IMG/VR virus record: IMGVR_UViG_2663762841_000006
Coordinates: 1-42,406 of that record
Source: a virus
Lineage: Duplodnaviria; Heunggongvirae; Uroviricota; Caudoviricetes
DNA: 42,406 nt
Direction: 5' to 3' (one strand)
Notes under the pieces: generated by a model
Told to the model about the DNA's origin: nothing
Databases searched by the model: none
Seen by the model: the letters and a program-made list of their open reading frames with translations, nothing else
Program-made: the position numbers and the translations under genes
Part shown: in pieces, positions 30,591 through 37,408 of the stretch
Layout: every line of letters starts with the position of its first letter
How positions within the stretch are numbered: the first letter of the stretch is position 1

Positions 30591-32006
30591 ATGGCTACGT
30601 GGCAACAGGGTATTAATTCTGGTGGTTTTCTGGCTGGCATCGGTACGCAAAATGAGAATGCGCCAAAGGCAAGCGACATTAACGCAACGCTTGGTCTGAT
30701 CCGCGAAAACAATGAACTGGCTCGCTCAGGTGCAAATAACGTTGGTCTGACCGCGTTACGTGGTCTGGCTGGAGTTGCTGATATTTATAAGCAGGAACAG
30801 CAACAGAAAGCGATTAATGCGTTCAATAAGGTTCATGCTGATGCATGGGCTTCTGGTGATCCATCGGGACTATTTAAGTTTGCCAAGGAAAATCCAGCGT
30901 TTGTTGCGCAGGCACAACAGGCGTTTTCCGGTCTTAATGAGCAGCAACGCAACGATATGGGCGATTTAGCCATGAGGGCTAACGTCGCTCTTTCTCAGGG
31001 ACCGGAAGCCTACAGTAAATTCATTACTGACAACAAGGATAGGTTAAATCGCGTTGGTGCTAATGCTGACTGGATGATTCAGACAGGTAACCAGAATCCA
31101 GAGCAGCTATCACACATGCTGACTACTATGTCTCTCGGTGCGCTTGGACCAGAAAAGGCGTTTGCTGTTCAGGACAAGATGGCTGGTCGTGAGATTGATC
31201 GCGGAAAACTTGCAGAGACAATCCGCAGCAATCAGGCTGGTGAAGCACTTCAGGCGAGAGGGCAAAACCTTTCCTATCAGTCAGCAATGACTGGGCACAA
31301 TATCGCAGCACAACGCTTGGCTCTGGATCAGCAAGAGTTCGGGTTTAAGATGCAGCAAGCGCAGGAAAAGGCTCAGCAGTTGATTAGCGAAGCACCTAAG
31401 CTGTCAGTAAACATGGAAAAAGGCATCGAGACGGCTGTAAACAATGCTACAGCATCATCAAACTCAGCCAATTCTATGAGTGCGCTTGCTCAACAGTTCA
31501 GAGCAGAAAAACCAACGACAGGTTTGTTCGGTAACGCACAGAACATGTTCGCAAAACTTACCGGAAGCGATACAACATTGCGTGATTTGCGCATTCGCCA
31601 AAATGCCCTTGTTAACAGTCAGGTTCTTAAATTCCTACCTCCCGGCCCAGCAACGGATAAAGACGTTGAGATCGTTCGACAGGGTGCGCCAACTGACATG
31701 GATAACCCTGAGACGGTCGCAAGATGGCTTGATGCAATGGCAAACCTTGAGCGACGAAACGCGCAGTTTAATGAGTTTAAAGCCGAGTGGATGAGCGCGA
31801 ATGGCAACCCTGGACAATCGCGTAATGGCGGTCAGATATTGGGGTTGGATGTTAAAAAAGGTGAATCATTGGGGAGTGCCGTTAAGCGGTATATGTCAAT
31901 GAATACTGACGCAGCGCCAGCACAAGATTCGACACCTTCAGGAGAACCACGGAATCAGGTTGGATCATATACCTCAAAATCAGGCATTCAATTTACGGTG
32001 GAATGA
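30591..32006 (+). CDS. ejection protein gp20-like
   Basis: 471 aa, same size and position as P22 gp20. Confidence 0.75.
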
Positions 32007-34009
32007 TGAAAGTAACTGCAAACGGTAAGACATTTACCTTTCCTGATGGTACGAGCACCGAAGATATTGGCACCGCCATTGATGAGTATTTTGCTGGTCA
32101 GTCAGCACCAACACAACAAGGTGTTCAGCAATCTCCAGCAGACAACTCACTTGCATCAGGATATGCACAGCTTGCCACTCAGCAGAAGGAAGGACTAGAT
32201 CGCTCTGCTGAGCAAGGGGCTGTTTTAGGTGCTGCAATGCGCGATGCCGTTACCGGTGAAAGCCGAATGACACCAGAAATGGAGAGGCTGCAAAATGTTG
32301 GGTCTGCTCCAGAGCTTAATAGCTTAAGCACTGATGCACTGCGTGCTGGATTGGGACAGCTATTTGGTTCCGACGCTTCACAGGAGAAAATACTGCAAAG
32401 TATTGGCGGGAAAATCCGGAAGGATGAGAAGGGAAATTCCATAGTCACCCTTCCTTCAGGGGAATATGCACTTAACAAGCCTGGTTTGTCACCGCAGGAT
32501 ATAACGTCATTCTTGGCAAATGCTCTTGCATTCACTCCAGCAGGTAGAGCTGCGTCTGTTGTAGGTGCAACACTAAAATCAGGCGCTACTGATTTAGCTT
32601 TACAGGGTGCCACTAAGATCGCTGGCGGTGAGAATGTTAATCCAGTTCAAACTGCAATTTCTGCTGGTCTTGGTGGGGTACTGAAGGGTGTAGAAAACAC
32701 CGCAAGCGCAGTGTCTCGTTCTGCTATGGGTAAGATTGCTCCTGAAAAACAAGCTCAGATTGACTTTGCCAAGCAGAACAACTTGCCACTGATGACAACA
32801 GATCTTGTGGAACCGGGACCAAATATTGGTAAGCAAGCACGAGCTATGGCTGAGCGAATCCCAATAGCCGGAACAGGTGGGATAAGAAATGCACAGCAAA
32901 AGGCCAGGGAAGATTTAGTTAGAACATTTAGCGATAATGTTGGTGGAATATCTGACGCACAACTTTACCAATCAGCTACTCGTGGTCAGCAGCAATTTAT
33001 TCAGGCTGCTGGCAAGCGGTACGACAGGATCATCAGTTTGATGGGGGATACTCCTGTTGACATCACTGGAACAGTGAAAGCAATTGATGCGCAGATTTCC
33101 AAGTTAACTCGCCCAGGAGTATCGCAAGACCGCTCAGCTGTTTCTGTCCTTCAACAGTTTAGAAATGACATCACCAGCGGTCCAAATAACCTGCAATTAG
33201 CTAGAGAAAACCGTACAAACTTACGTAAGCGCTTTATGGCAGCACCTGACGAGGTCGATAGAGATACGCTGGAGAAAGCTGCGCAGTCTGTTTATAACGC
33301 ATACACAACAGACATGAAAAAAGCGGTTGGCGCAAAACTAGGTGCGAAGGAAGCGCAAAACATGTCGCGTGTTGATCGTTCTTGGGCAAAGTTCAACGAC
33401 ATGATGAGCAATACACGTGTCCAAAAAGCTATTCAGAGTGGTAAAACAACGCCAGAAGATGTCACTAAACTAGTATTCAGCCAAAGCCCAGCGGAAAGGG
33501 CGCAACTTTATCGATTGCTTGATGATAGTGGGCGTCAAAATGCTAGAGCAGCACTTGTTCAGCGTGCAATGGATAAGGCGACAAGCGATTCAGGAAAGCT
33601 TAGCGTTGAGAAGTTTATTAATGAAATGAAAAGGAATCGGAAGCAGGCTGAGACGTTCTTCAGAGGAGAGCATGGGAAACAGCTTGATGGGATAATGAAA
33701 TATCTTGATTCCACTAGACAGGCAGCTACAGCTGCCGCAAGCCCACTAACAGGGCAAATGGTAGCTGGTCCAGCAGCGCTGATAACAGCTCTTGCGCCTG
33801 TTACAAATCCAATGTTTGCAAAAGTTGCGGCAGTTGGAGCTGGTATCGGTATGGCTGGCAGGGTCTATGAGTCACGCGCGATGAGGAACGCATTACTAAA
33901 GTTAGCAAACACGCCAAAAGGAAGTACTGCTTATGATAGAGCGATCAGACTGGTATCTGAAACTCTTACACCTCTAATTCAGGCTTCAAGTGAGAAAGCC
34001 CAGCAGTAA
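32003..34009 (+). CDS. ejection protein gp16-like
   Basis: 668 aa; last gene of the ejection-protein operon. Confidence 0.75.
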
Positions 34010-34017
34010 AAAGTTGG

Positions 34018-34338
34018 TTAGCGGTTGATGGTTGCTTTTTTCGGGTCATACCATCTCGGCCATTCTTTCAGGAATGGGAATGAGTCGGGTGCGTGGTTCT
34101 TTTTGTACGATTTAAGCAGCCTTAACCGCTCAATCGCACACTCATAAACCTCTTGTTGCCCTGTAGTCATTTCGGTCCATGAAAGGTGATCCATTGATAA
34201 GACAACGTTTTCAGCTTCTTTTATGAGGGCGTTTTTATTTCTCACCGCAGCAGCATGGCTGACAGAGCAATCCTGCCATATTCTTAAAAGCCAAATAGCT
34301 AAGCAGATGAAAAAAATGGTAGATAGCGATATATACAC
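34018..34338 (-). CDS. hypothetical membrane-anchored protein, about 106 aa (accessory island)
   Basis: Strong SD TAAGGAGG then GTG; N-terminal hydrophobic helix ISLSTIFFICLAIWLL; the 178-aa track extension is antisense to the next gene and reads as junk. Confidence 0.45.
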   Translation of the reverse strand: MYISLSTIFFICLAIWLLRIWQDCSVSHAAAVRNKNALIKEAENVVLSMDHLSWTEMTTGQQEVYECAIERLRLLKSYKKNHAPDSFPFLKEWPRWYDPKKATINR

Positions 34339-34368
34339 ACCAACCTCCTTAGTTTTACGCAGGATACC

Positions 34369-34734
34369 ATGAAAAAAGTTAACATTGGAAACGTACCAAA
34401 AATGCTCGTACCGCTCTTTGAGAGCGGTACAATTGTGTTTTGCAGAGACTTTCCAGAATGGCAACGCCTGCATCAAAAACTTGGCGTGGACGTGCAGGAC
34501 TCGGATGCCAACGGAGCGTCTCATACAATGAGCAGCGAGAATGGTGTTTTGCATGTGATAGGCGTGTTCAATGGCAAACTATCTACCATTGCCCATGAGT
34601 GCGCTCACATGGCATTCGATATCTGCTCAAGGGTCGGTGTTGATGTTGAACCAGGAAGAGCCAACGAGACTTACTGCTACTTAATGAGCAGGCTTGTTGA
34701 GTTCTGCGAGCGACATATCAAAAAGCCGGAGTGA
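34369..34734 (+). CDS. hypothetical protein with HExxH motif (HECAH), possible minimal zinc metallopeptidase
   Basis: 121 aa with protein-like composition; ends within a bidirectional terminator hairpin. Confidence 0.5.
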   Translation: MKKVNIGNVPKMLVPLFESGTIVFCRDFPEWQRLHQKLGVDVQDSDANGASHTMSSENGVLHVIGVFNGKLSTIAHECAHMAFDICSRVGVDVEPGRANETYCYLMSRLVEFCERHIKKPE

Positions 34735-34746
34735 CCCGGCTTGATT
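34720..34746. terminator. bidirectional hairpin terminator (agccgg-agtgac-ccggct) between convergent genes
   Basis: Flanked by an A-run on one side and a T-rich tract on the other. Confidence 0.5.
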
Positions 34747-34747
34747 A

Positions 34748-34972
34748 TTACTTTTTTTGGTATGTTAAGAATGGCAAGTCGCCAGTGTACCCCAAGCGGA
34801 AAAGCTCCAATTGCTTATCTCTTATGGATAAAAAATAATCGTTTCTTGCCTTTTTAAGCCACAACCAGCCGATCATCAAGATGAATAATATTGATATTAT
34901 TGGCATCGGGGAGATCAACACCACTCCGATGAATAATGACGCTAGCAGCACCGATAAAATAGCAGAAACCAT
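34748..34972 (-). CDS. small double-TM membrane protein, 74 aa
   Basis: Two hydrophobic segments (AILSVLLASLFIGVVLI and IISILFILMIGWLWL); GGGAGA RBS. Confidence 0.5.
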   Translation of the reverse strand: MVSAILSVLLASLFIGVVLISPMPIISILFILMIGWLWLKKARNDYFLSIRDKQLELFRLGYTGDLPFLTYQKK

Positions 34973-34997
34973 ACTAATCTCCCACTAAGGTAACAAT

Positions 34998-35183
34998 ATG
35001 ACCATAGAAGAACGCCTGAACAACATCGAGTTGAATCAAACCCTGCTTGACCAGCGACTTTCAGATCTTGAACTTAAAGATCTGGATGCGCAAATATCGG
35101 AAGCAGAAGCCAAGCTCTCCAGCCTAAACCACCGCAAGAAGCAAATCCGCAACAGAATTACTCAGGGACGCGGAAGCTGTTGA
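34998..35183 (+). CDS. small coiled-coil-like protein, 61 aa
   Basis: TAAGGT RBS; heptad-like Leu/Glu-rich sequence; 3' end overlaps the convergent 69-aa gene. Confidence 0.35.
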   Translation: MTIEERLNNIELNQTLLDQRLSDLELKDLDAQISEAEAKLSSLNHRKKQIRNRITQGRGSC

Positions 35184-35367
35184 GGTGGGATGCTAGGTCT
35201 CTATCGTTAAAATCAAGGCTGCTAATCATTTCATTGTAAATAGCGTTTTTATCTTCCATTGGCAGTCTTGAGTAAACCAGACACAGAGCATATTTCAGGG
35301 AGTTTAGCTCTTTCTCTAGCTCTTCCTTGCTTGATGTTTTTGACTTAATAAACTGTTTTTTATTCAT
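35158..35367 (-). CDS. hypothetical protein, 69 aa, translationally coupled to mnt
   Basis: Start overlaps the mnt stop (ATGA); no recognised motif. Confidence 0.45.
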   Translation of the reverse strand: MNKKQFIKSKTSSKEELEKELNSLKYALCLVYSRLPMEDKNAIYNEMISSLDFNDRDLASHLNSFRVPE

Positions 35368-35600
35368 TTTGCATCCTTACCATACATGGTTTTCAGTGTT
35401 TCAATCAGCGCATCCCTGAATTTGTCAGCCTCTTTCTGAGCAAATTCATTGCTATTAAGCGATCTACCACAAACAGCATCTTCGATAATCTGTATTATTT
35501 CAGCATTCATGGAACGCTTGTTATGTTGCGCCCTGGCTTTAACCTTTGCCTTTAACTCTTTGGAAATCCTGATATTTATTTGCGGCTCTTCGCGTGACAT
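35364..35600 (-). CDS. mnt: Mnt-like ribbon-helix-helix repressor
   Basis: 78 aa; N-terminal RHH (INIRISKELKAKVKARAQHNKRSMNAEIIQIIEDAV) resembles P22 Mnt; divergent from arc-ant. Confidence 0.7.
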   Translation of the reverse strand: MSREEPQINIRISKELKAKVKARAQHNKRSMNAEIIQIIEDAVCGRSLNSNEFAQKEADKFRDALIETLKTMYGKDAK

Positions 35601-35688
35601 ACCACCTCCATAGCATTTTGGTGATATTACTATTGCATCACTGCGATCACAATGGCATAACGGTTATACCAAATTGATTGGAGGTAAT

Positions 35689-35862
35689 ATGATAGTCAAG
35701 TCAGACGCACCAAAGTACCCTTTGCGCATCCCATTAGAGGTTAAGTTAGCAATCGAGAAGTCAGCGAAAGAAAATGGTCGCTCAATAAATACCGAGATGG
35801 TAATGCGGTTAGTGGATAGTTTAAGGCGGGATAGTTCTAAAGGTAATCTAGCAAAAAGTTGA
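35689..35862 (+). CDS. arc: Arc-like ribbon-helix-helix repressor
   Basis: 57 aa from ATG with GGAGG RBS; [18 protein letters not shown] resembles P22 Arc (ENGRSVNSEIYQRVMESF). Confidence 0.7.
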
Positions 35863-35924
35863 AGCCCCAACTGCGGGAACAGTCAGGGCTTCGGTATCAA
35901 CAAATCGGATTAGGAAATATTGAC

Positions 35925-36803
35925 ATGAAAAGTATAGCAAAGGCACAAAACGATTTCACCATCTTCAAATTCGGCGACAGTGAAATCCGCGTCATCAACA
36001 AATGCGGTGAGCCGTGGTTTGTAGCAAAAGATGTTTGTGATGCTTTAACCCTGACTAACTCACGCAAGGCGCTTACTGCACTTGATGACGATGAAAAGGG
36101 AGTAACTTTAAGTTACACCCTTGGTGGTGAGCAGAATCTAAGCATTGTTAGCGAATCAGGTATGTATACATTGGTTCTGCGCTGCCGCGATGCTGTCAAT
36201 AAAGGTTCGGTCCCGCACAAATTCCGCAAGTGGGTAACAGCAGAAGTTCTGCCTTCAATTCGCAAACATGGCGAGTATGTGAAAGGCAAGAAAACCACTG
36301 TTGAGGAAAGAACACCGCTACGCGATGCAGTAAACATGCTGGTAGGAAAGAAAGGACTTCGCTATGACGATGCATACAATATGGTTCATCAGCGTTTTGG
36401 TATTGACAGCATTGATGAACTTTCAATTGAACAAATCCCGCTGGCCGTAGAGTACATCCACAGGGTAGTGCTTGAAGGTGAATTCATCGGAAAACAAGAG
36501 AAGAAAACTGATGAGCTTTCTGCAAAAGAAGCAAACAGCCTTGTATGGTTATGGGATTATGCCAACCGCTCACAGGCATTATTCCGCGAACTGTATCCGG
36601 CGCTAAAACAAATTCAATCGAACTATTCCGGCAGATGCTACGACTACGGTCATGAGTTCTCGTATGTTATCGGAATGGCGAGAGACGTTTTAATCAATCA
36701 CACACGAGATGTTGATATTAATGAGCCAGACGGACCAACGAATCTTTCCGCATGGATGAGACTTAAGAATAAAGAATTACCTCCTTCAGTACATAACTAC
36801 TGA
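35925..36803 (+). CDS. ant: antirepressor Ant (BRO-N-type N-terminal domain)
   Basis: 292 aa from ATG 35925; follows arc; Bro-N-like N-terminus; terminator downstream. Confidence 0.7.
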
Positions 36804-36913: not shown

Positions 36914-37408
36914 TTATCTAAAACAAGCAAACTCGCCATGATATTTTTCCCTGAATGCAATAGACATTAATTCGGCCAGCTCAATATCATCGGTATACCC
37001 AAGGCAAATAGACTTACCTTTTAGTTTGAACATAACTTTATATGTGTTTTTCCCTTTAAGAAGATGAACTCCTTTTATACCTGTATTGGATGATGAAACG
37101 CTGTTGGTTTTATTCTGACCTCTGGTTACTTCTCTTAGGTTTGAAATTCTATTGTCATTTTTAACCCCGTTAATATGGTCAATTAACCCTTTAGGCCAGC
37201 ATCCTTTCATATAAAACCAAGCAAGTCGGTGGCAAAGATATGATTTCCCATTAATCCGTATTGATAAGTAGTCGGCCTGTGAGTTCGTCTTAAATCCAGC
37301 AACCTTTCCGATACTGGAGCTACCAGAAGCTATCTTCCAAGTGAAGACGCCTGTTTCTGGGTTGTAGTTGAGTGAAGAGGTTAATTCTTTATGAGTAATC
37401 ATATTCAT
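36914..37408 (-). CDS. HNH homing-endonuclease-like protein (HNH_3 type)
   Basis: 164 aa; HRLAWFY...IDHINGVKNDNRISNLREVTRGQN motif; AT-rich; antisense to the flanking late genes. Confidence 0.65.
   Translation of the reverse strand: MNMITHKELTSSLNYNPETGVFTWKIASGSSSIGKVAGFKTNSQADYLSIRINGKSYLCHRLAWFYMKGCWPKGLIDHINGVKNDNRISNLREVTRGQNKTNSVSSSNTGIKGVHLLKGKNTYKVMFKLKGKSICLGYTDDIELAELMSIAFREKYHGEFACFR

Follow-up and report, generated by a model that had tools for sequence, protein, structure and literature searches.

Positions 34018-35367 of the IMG/VR virus record IMGVR_UViG_2663762841_000006 form a 1.35-kb segment with five small open reading frames (ORF), named A to E here, in a P22-like (Lederbergvirus) phage or prophage. 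The window, i.e. the whole stretch of DNA that was analysed, covers 42,406 nucleotides (nt). Around the segment the order is gene 16 homologue, segment, mnt, arc, sar, ant, an HNH-like ORF and the tailspike gene. The stretch between gene 16 and gene 9 was named the 'ant moron' by Villafane, Casjens et al. 2008, who distinguished ten types among sixteen genomes, described the region as being in 'rapid flux' and listed hkcC and 59a with unknown function (PMC2629481). Because the order of gp16, slot, mnt, arc, sar, ant and tailspike agrees with this description, the segment is, as judged by gene order, the gene-16-proximal half of this hypervariable region. The region as such is ordinary: it is a known hot spot, and one more variant is no news. 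The segment is probably best explained as a patchwork of five small genes that were swapped separately into a fixed regulatory scaffolding, and not as one system.

The left border is the gene 16 homologue (32003..34009, plus strand), which encodes an ejection protein 99% identical to gp16 of phage N7 and 22-31% identical to the other gp16 types. The right border is mnt (35364..35600, minus strand), encoding a ribbon-helix-helix (RHH) repressor of the Arc/MetJ type (Pfam Arc, E = 5.7e-13). Between them, ORF A (34018..34338, minus strand) starts with GTG and encodes a protein of 106 amino acids (aa), with an N-terminal transmembrane (TM) helix followed by a helical domain of about 85 aa (phrog_10450, unknown function). 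ORF B (34369..34734, plus strand) is placed in the late-operon orientation and encodes a soluble protein of 121 aa. By sequence comparison it is HkcC: the 121 residues are all identical to those of the HK620 protein, phrog_1365 is matched with E = 1.4e-39, and the gene shows about 98% nt identity with that of P22. ORF C (34748..34972, minus strand) encodes 74 aa with two TM segments, takes the position of P22 orf59a and has no PHROG. ORF D (34998..35183, plus strand, late-operon orientation; phrog_7586) encodes a coiled coil of 61 aa. ORF E (35158..35367, minus strand; phrog_16466) encodes a soluble protein of 69 aa, and its 3' end overlaps that of ORF D by 26 nt. The bidirectional intrinsic terminator of hkcC and ORF C (34723..34742) scores as a terminator on both strands and corresponds to tORF59A of HK620 and t mnt of P22. 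All five ORF had been proposed, at these coordinates, in an original prediction made from the sequence alone, which also placed correctly the bidirectional hairpin and the ATGA overlap with mnt. The AT-richness that it noted is right in direction and slight in effect, since the GC content is 0.433 in the segment and 0.466 in the window (15th percentile of the 1350-nt windows).

The variable sites among the relatives of each ORF were sorted by codon position and into synonymous and non-synonymous changes. Third codon positions hold 13 of the 16 variable sites in ORF A (synonymous to non-synonymous changes 13:3), 27 of the 32 in hkcC (29:6), 21 of the 34 in ORF D (23:11) and five of the seven in ORF E (5:2). 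Owing to this bias, A, B, D and E behave as coding sequence; for ORF D, a coiled-coil gene of 61 codons as predicted, the other frames and the opposite strand are far worse. ORF C has three variable sites only, two of them non-synonymous, which are too few to inform. The five proteins are already public in exactly this form, labelled 'hypothetical protein'. Each of A, B, D and E is carried by roughly a thousand contigs; C is carried by 121, and a nearly identical variant of it by 569.

As had been supposed, the genes are accessory and have no assigned function. Scans of the five proteins against Pfam, NCBIfam, PADLOC and PHROG give no functional assignment, with nothing significant in the first three and PHROG families labelled 'unknown function', and no known defence, toxin or structural family is matched. 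In PADLOC-DB v2, A, B, C and E have no match and D has coiled-coil noise only (PbeC at 7e-4, JetC). PDB sequence searches with A, D and E, and with HkcC as a single-family and as a diverse profile, return nothing significant, and a literature search found no functional work on hkcB, hkcC or orf59a. The earlier statement that none of the proteins can be placed in a family holds only in part; it does not hold for the HExxH protein, which is the named hkcC of HK620 and P22, nor for the region, which is the described ant moron.

Comparison with the P22 annotation identifies the slot as the sieA slot of that phage, in agreement with the original prediction. In P22 it contains sieA, hkcC, orf59a and mnt, and in HK620 it contains hkcB, hkcC and a possible hkcD. 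The segment shares with the published ant morons (PMC2629481) the position between gene 16 and the tailspike gene, hkcC, the bidirectional terminator, mnt, arc, sar and ant, as well as the turnover of small genes. On the other hand, the combination of A, hkcC, C, D and E is not among the types discussed there, and no named gene corresponds to A, C, D or E. The hkcC protein is equal to that of HK620, whereas its convergent partner in the window is ORF C and not orf59a/HkcD.

Comparison of the slot across P22-like prophages, which had been suggested together with the ORF, reveals gene-by-gene turnover. In a census sample of 80 IMG/VR contigs that carry hkcC at 99% identity or more, orf59a is present in 70, D in 19, SieA in 12, C in 10, E in nine, HkcB in eight and A in four, and all five genes of the segment occur together in three. 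C is never found with orf59a and always with D. Conversely, hkcC accompanies a relative of ORF A in only 4 of 26 loci, and the five genes are complete in three of these 26. The whole 1.8 kb is matched only by E. coli strains of the 0H series (99.5%). Other genomes match it piecewise: phage N7 over the end of gp16 and A, P22 and HK620 over hkcC, S.Kent 1-2-1 over hkcC, C and D, and Kapi1 over D, E and mnt. Among the complete E. coli genomes ORF D is present in 136 of 5426, and the homology ends at its stop codon or within mnt, 13-40 nt from the 3' end of that gene; breakpoints also fall exactly at the ATG of ORF D. Such breakpoints at gene ends are as expected for cassettes that are exchanged independently.

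The left part of the segment is organised around a scaffold of 85 bp (34339..34423, minus strand), which comprises the Shine-Dalgarno sequence (SD; AAGGAGG), the 5' untranslated region (UTR) and the 'P sieA' region of the P22-pbi annotation, and overlaps the 5' end of hkcC. It has four mismatches to P22. When the window, P22, HK620 and two E. coli prophages are aligned, the five sequences diverge completely to the left of the GTG start and are nearly identical to the right of it, through the SD, the 5'UTR, the annotated P sieA and hkcC. ORF A thus sits exactly at the position of sieA in P22 and hkcB in HK620, with the same promoter region, SD and GTG. In a census of 88 loci the same SD and GTG (rarely ATG) stand at the same position before unrelated proteins wherever a cassette is present, and the 30-nt spacer ahead of the hkcC ATG is identical in 86 of the 88; two compared loci lack hkcC. 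The cassettes of this census are SieA (164 aa), ORF A, a 149-aa TM protein, two or three 109-aa types with a TM segment plus coiled coil (HkcB included), a pair of two-TM proteins of 75 and 62 aa, and signal-peptide proteins of 129, 99 and 68 aa; the slot is empty in 17 loci. Where the gp16 is only distantly related to this lineage, the slot encodes a BamE-like lipoprotein or a four-TM protein. In total there are at least 13 unrelated cassette types, and an N-terminal TM segment or signal peptide is detectable in 12 of 13. The 99-aa type has a weaker signal-like region that just misses the hydropathy cut-off; the annotation of Kapi1 gives its counterpart there a signal peptide.

ORF A begins 5 nt after AGGAGG, which agrees with the strong SD ascribed to it, and has the single N-terminal hydrophobic stretch expected of a one-TM protein. 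Its relatives fall into 14 clusters and retain their length at 65-77% identity. The AlphaFold2 (AF2) model has a predicted local distance difference test score (pLDDT) of 87.3, with helices at residues 5-48 and 59-77. In a single copy, sieA with 85 bp of upstream DNA suffices for exclusion (Leavitt et al. 2024, PMC10883804). The conservation of the 85-bp scaffold, with its four differences, and this precedent indicate that ORF A is very probably expressed and membrane-inserted in the lysogen. It would be an inner-membrane-anchored protein of the lysogen that acts at the envelope and, most probably, excludes superinfecting phages in SieA's stead, through contacts of its own. Given the unrelated envelope-targeted proteins that alternate at this position, ORF A is treated as a candidate exclusion protein. 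Superinfection exclusion, which the original prediction had offered for all five genes, is plausible for ORF A from its position, promoter and membrane anchor, but not for the five genes as one module.

The comparison with SieA has two sides. ORF A and P22 SieA share the locus, the orientation, the upstream 85-bp promoter/SD region, the position of the GTG start and a membrane anchor. As in the SieA types A-C, ORF A lies between genes 16 and 9, is read leftward and stands behind P sieA. However, ORF A has 106 aa and one TM segment, whereas SieA has 164 aa and three predicted ones, and the cytoplasmic SieA motif FxRYPxEAxxFNK is not present in ORF A. SieA types A-C are multi-pass inner-membrane proteins with three or four predicted TM segments, which block DNA injection by P22-like phages; ORF A has one hydrophobic stretch and, in the AF2 model, the long helix 5-48. 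Three results weigh against the preferred reading: BLASTP and hhalign detect no sequence or profile similarity of ORF A to SieA or HkcB, a structure search with the model returns generic helical-hairpin neighbours only, and a consensus promoter scan of the segment finds no sigma-70 site. ORF A was rejected as a SieA homologue, with no BLASTP alignment and an hhalign probability of 0.1%, and neither the SieA motif nor a tblastn match to SieA occurs anywhere in the window. One E. coli record annotates ORF A as a protein of 178 aa (34018-34554); this longer form overlaps hkcC and is a probable start over-extension, like the long form of ORF D described below.

The most notable gene of the segment, judged by its encoded residues, is hkcC, which is present in P22 itself and carries an invariant zinc-protease signature. 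The HECAH (HExxH) motif pointed out in the original prediction occupies residues 76-80, as H76-E77-x-x-H80, and is followed by E100. A word-indexed search gives 32 clusters of relatives, and an exhaustive profile search gives 526 representative proteins (E <= 1e-3), almost all of 110-140 aa. Across 91 diverse members no residue is invariant except H76, E77, H80 and E100, and the Glu follows the second His by 19-20 residues in 86 of the members. The AF2 model (pLDDT 93.8; predicted template modelling score, pTM, 0.87) has strands at 11-13, 21-25, 49-56 and 59-66, a helix at 28-37, the HExxH helix at 71-88 and a helix at 100-117, which is opened by E100 after a beta-hairpin. This arrangement is the zincin core of the phage metallopeptidases (MPTase) described by Iyer et al. 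2017 (PMC5512222). As in gluzincins, the HExxH lies on an alpha-helix and the Glu about 20 residues past the second His, on the next helix.

With the gluzincin MPTase domains that this study describes in polyvalent proteins of phages and plasmids, HkcC has in common the HExxH helix, the Glu 19-20 residues further on in the next helix, the preceding beta-sheet with its backing helix and the presence in phages. HkcC differs from them as a stand-alone protein of 121 aa, which is not a domain of a giant polyvalent protein, and has no significant match by hidden Markov model (HMM) or fold. A few members have weak Pfam matches (SprT-like, DUF5700, M78), and the weak PDB profile matches are to myroilysin, astacins and the MPTase region of an N4-like virion RNA polymerase (vRNAP; E 0.055-1.3); almost all the weak matches are zincins. 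One member of the family is labelled 'PolyVal metallopeptidase' by its source. Neither HMM and PDB searches nor Foldseek (best E 0.16) give a significant match to a characterised zincin. HkcC is thus a predicted zinc metallopeptidase by motif, spacing and modelled topology, and does not belong to any defined family. It would be a small cytoplasmic enzyme made late in lytic growth.

The genomic positions of HkcC relatives change with their distance. Those of 57-63% identity are embedded in tail operons of siphoviruses and point the same way as the tail genes, and each is followed by a convergent gene for a 59-aa homologue of P22 orf59a (78-83% identity). This two-gene cassette occurs in siphovirus prophages of Klebsiella, of Rosenbergiella and of a metagenome (loci L010:5001-5563, L012:5001-5556 and L013:5001-5526), just upstream of the tape-measure region and after the tail tube and YdaY-like genes. 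An obligate pairing of hkcC and orf59a was rejected: the pair is kept in close relatives, yet it is found in only 5 of 80 diverse members, and ORF C replaces orf59a in the window. At 37-50% identity, the relatives share the direction of both neighbouring genes in 65 of 80 loci and typically lie between an Rz-like spanin gene and terS, the gene of the terminase small subunit. HkcC was also considered as a repressor protease of the ImmA/IrrE (M78) type. The best M78 match is E = 0.099, in one member, and most relatives stand between the lysis genes and terS rather than next to repressors; because of these usual positions an ImmA-like action on repressors is unlikely.

Some P22-like genomes have two HkcC-family paralogues, one in the ant moron and the other elsewhere on the contig (L060 and L171 on contig IMGVR_UViG_650627081_000001; L066/L170; L077/L169), and no second hkcC paralogue was found in the window. 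Downstream of several distant relatives, a gene of phrog_513, labelled 'transposase' (L230:4355-5005), contains HELYH and may encode a second putative metallopeptidase.

C, D and E would be real or probable small proteins. In ORF C, residues 1-42 are hydrophobic and interrupted by Pro22/Pro24, in line with the double TM segment that had been noticed. ORF C was rejected as a homologue of orf59a/HkcD (YjzC-like), with no BLASTP alignment; what the two share is the last two lysine codons, the stop codon and the terminator. ORF D was rejected as XhlA (PF10779), the haemolysin/lysis-associated protein of PBSX: the Pfam match has E = 0.056 and 14.1 bits against a cut-off of 34.7 bits, and there is no TM segment (maximum KD19 hydropathy -0.28). 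The coiled-coil N-terminal region of XhlA is alike, whereas the hydrophobic segment is lacking in ORF D. A 92-aa form of ORF D, annotated as 'hemolysin XhlA family protein' in PGAP/GenBank, occurs at L007:2614-2892, L004:2409-2687 and L009:3324-3602; its extra 31 residues cross a signal-peptide gene on the opposite strand, and its start is probably over-extended. ORF D also contains a near-perfect palindrome of 23 nt, CAGATCTTGAACTTAAAGATCTG (35062-35084), with two BglII sites, which is unique in the window and appears in 0 of 100 shuffles. It could be an operator-like site, or arise by chance within a coiled-coil coding repeat.

The ATG of ORF E overlaps the mnt stop codon as ATGA (35364-35367). 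The partner of mnt varies: at least four further genes, unrelated to ORF E, are coupled to it in other prophages, with overlaps of 1-4 nt (L008:3426-3962, L005:3513-3860, L006:3358-3675 and L095:2196-2561), whereas P22 mnt has no coupled partner. One of the coupled genes encodes a 178-aa protease of the ClpP family (Pfam CLP_protease, E = 4e-12). There looks to be a second cassette position behind mnt.

The two strands of the segment would be read at different times. The minus-strand genes, A and mnt-E and possibly C, would be expressed in the prophage from P sieA and P mnt. The genes hkcC and D are oriented as in a late operon and would probably be read by late transcription heading to the tailspike gene, neither of the two seeming to have room for its own conserved promoter; for hkcC, this is because the variable cassette lies directly upstream. 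On whether the mnt side is expressed in the prophage, published RNA-seq data are divided. In the LF82 prophage Gally the mnt-side genes are induced 6- to 40-fold in macrophages (PMC9928086). In a lysogen of Kapi1, which has a nearly identical D-E-mnt segment, Kapi1_059-062 are absent from the list of unexpressed genes, but the mnt transcripts are under the detection threshold in lysogeny broth (LB) and simulated intestinal fluid (SIF) (PMC12922286). This last result points the other way, and prophage expression from P mnt is therefore not assured. Within hkcC, a perfect 12-bp hairpin (34406..34432; -18.5 kcal/mol, z = -5.8) with a U-run on the minus strand lies just upstream of P sieA; the P22 stem has one mismatch. 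It could insulate P sieA or attenuate late read-through.

Three other explanations bear on how the genes belong together. The original prediction took the five genes as one coherent module for superinfection exclusion, abortive infection or toxin-immunity. The genes are indeed adjacent and compact, lie beside the immunity I (immI) region, include membrane proteins and a putative peptidase, and co-occur in the window, in the E. coli 0H strains and in a few IMG/VR contigs. This reading is nevertheless very improbable, as they assort independently in the two sets of loci counted above, each gene is met with differing neighbours, the breakpoints lie at gene ends, the two strands have different expected timing, and PADLOC, Pfam and NCBIfam yield zero defence or toxin matches. 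Nothing was found either in favour of a toxin-immunity pair. A narrower form of the idea, that mnt and ORF E are a type II toxin-antitoxin-like pair with an RHH antitoxin and a coupled downstream toxin, draws on the ATGA coupling of a small ORF to an RHH protein and on weak matches of Mnt to the antitoxin RHH families FitA and HicB. It is hardly credible when set against the role of Mnt as the immI maintenance repressor, with arc, sar and ant alongside, the lack of a toxin family match of ORF E in Pfam, NCBIfam, PADLOC and PDB, and the unrelated partners of mnt in other prophages, with none in P22. ORF A could also be a functional partner of gp16, e.g. a factor for exclusion or self-compatibility that is matched to the gp16 allele, rather than a cassette that is exchanged freely. 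Each of the 26 relatives of ORF A comes immediately after the 3' end of a gp16 of the same lineage, facing it from the opposite strand, and the two diverge in step (identities of A and of the gp16 C-terminus 99/99, 66/81, 72/67 and 41/36%) while the mnt-side neighbours vary; furthermore, the escape mutations of SieA map to gp16 and gp20 (PMC10883804). In the reverse direction, ORF A is present in all 20 loci with a gp16 of at least 97% identity but in only three of the eight at 77-82%. The other five have a BamE-like lipoprotein, a four-TM protein or nothing instead, which rules out ORF A as an obligate partner. Since only 8 nt separate the stop codons of gp16 and ORF A, physical linkage without functional coupling suffices to explain the co-divergence, and a partnership is quite unlikely.

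The two remaining alternatives concern single genes. HkcC may not be an active peptidase, and the metal bound by its HExxH...E may play a structural or regulatory part, or these residues may catalyse another hydrolysis. Its very small size, the several conserved cysteines (C103 is present in 77 of the 91 members) and the missing significant match to a characterised zincin in sequence or structure would fit. The catalytic Glu of the HExxH is, however, invariant in 91 of 91 members together with both His and the distal Glu at the gluzincin spacing, a structural-only site would not need E77, and the modelled topology fits a minimal zincin core; this alternative is rather unlikely. To a similar degree it is doubtful that ORF C is no gene and that the DNA from ORF E to the terminator is a non-coding spacer or 3'UTR, even if the coding status of ORF C is the least certain of the five. 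It is never called in PGAP annotation, it has no PHROG, two of its three variable sites are non-synonymous, and its relatives are all at least 91% identical, always in the hkcC-C-D context (166 assembly blocks), all of which counts against a protein. Against the spacer stand a GGAG 7 nt upstream of the ATG, two clean hydrophobic segments, and a reading frame of 74 aa that is intact in every variant. Seven residues differ in the 91% variant: five are conservative exchanges of one hydrophobic residue for another (V/I/L/M), and two fall at the C-terminal Q-K-K. Finally, ORF C and orf59a exchange precisely at the ORF ends and are mutually exclusive (10 and 70 loci).

Besides the patchwork itself, the analysis adds to the known hot spot a fixed expression socket that feeds many unrelated envelope proteins, and the invariant zinc-protease signature of HkcC with its late-operon placement. 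Both are testable leads and not findings. Taken jointly, they would mean that the sieA position is a plug-and-play socket, with a fixed promoter, SD and GTG serving at least 13 unrelated envelope-targeted proteins, and that HkcC founds a large family of stand-alone zinc proteases of about 120 aa, made late and cleaving a target of the host or of a rival phage; this joint claim is possible, though on balance doubtful. The left slot provides a ready list of candidate exclusion proteins that share promoter, SD and start codon, and that can be compared side by side in the single-copy assay of sieA. The hkcC gene, which encodes all the catalytic residues of the zinc-peptidase signature, occurs in P22 and HK620, two genetically easy phages, and its role is directly testable there.

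Beyond mnt, the right half of the moron contains arc (35674-35862, plus strand), the sar antisense RNA at the arc/ant junction (35857-35923, minus strand; Rfam RF00262, 71.6 bits, E = 3.7e-14) and ant (35859-36803, plus strand). With sar in place at this junction, the immunity I region looks complete and functional. In the Rfam scan sar is the only family found, and it lies outside the segment, which contains none. Between ant and the tailspike gene, a 164-aa ORF (36914-37408, minus strand) is a further inserted gene of the same moron; the Kapi1 gene in the matching position is annotated as an HNH endonuclease.

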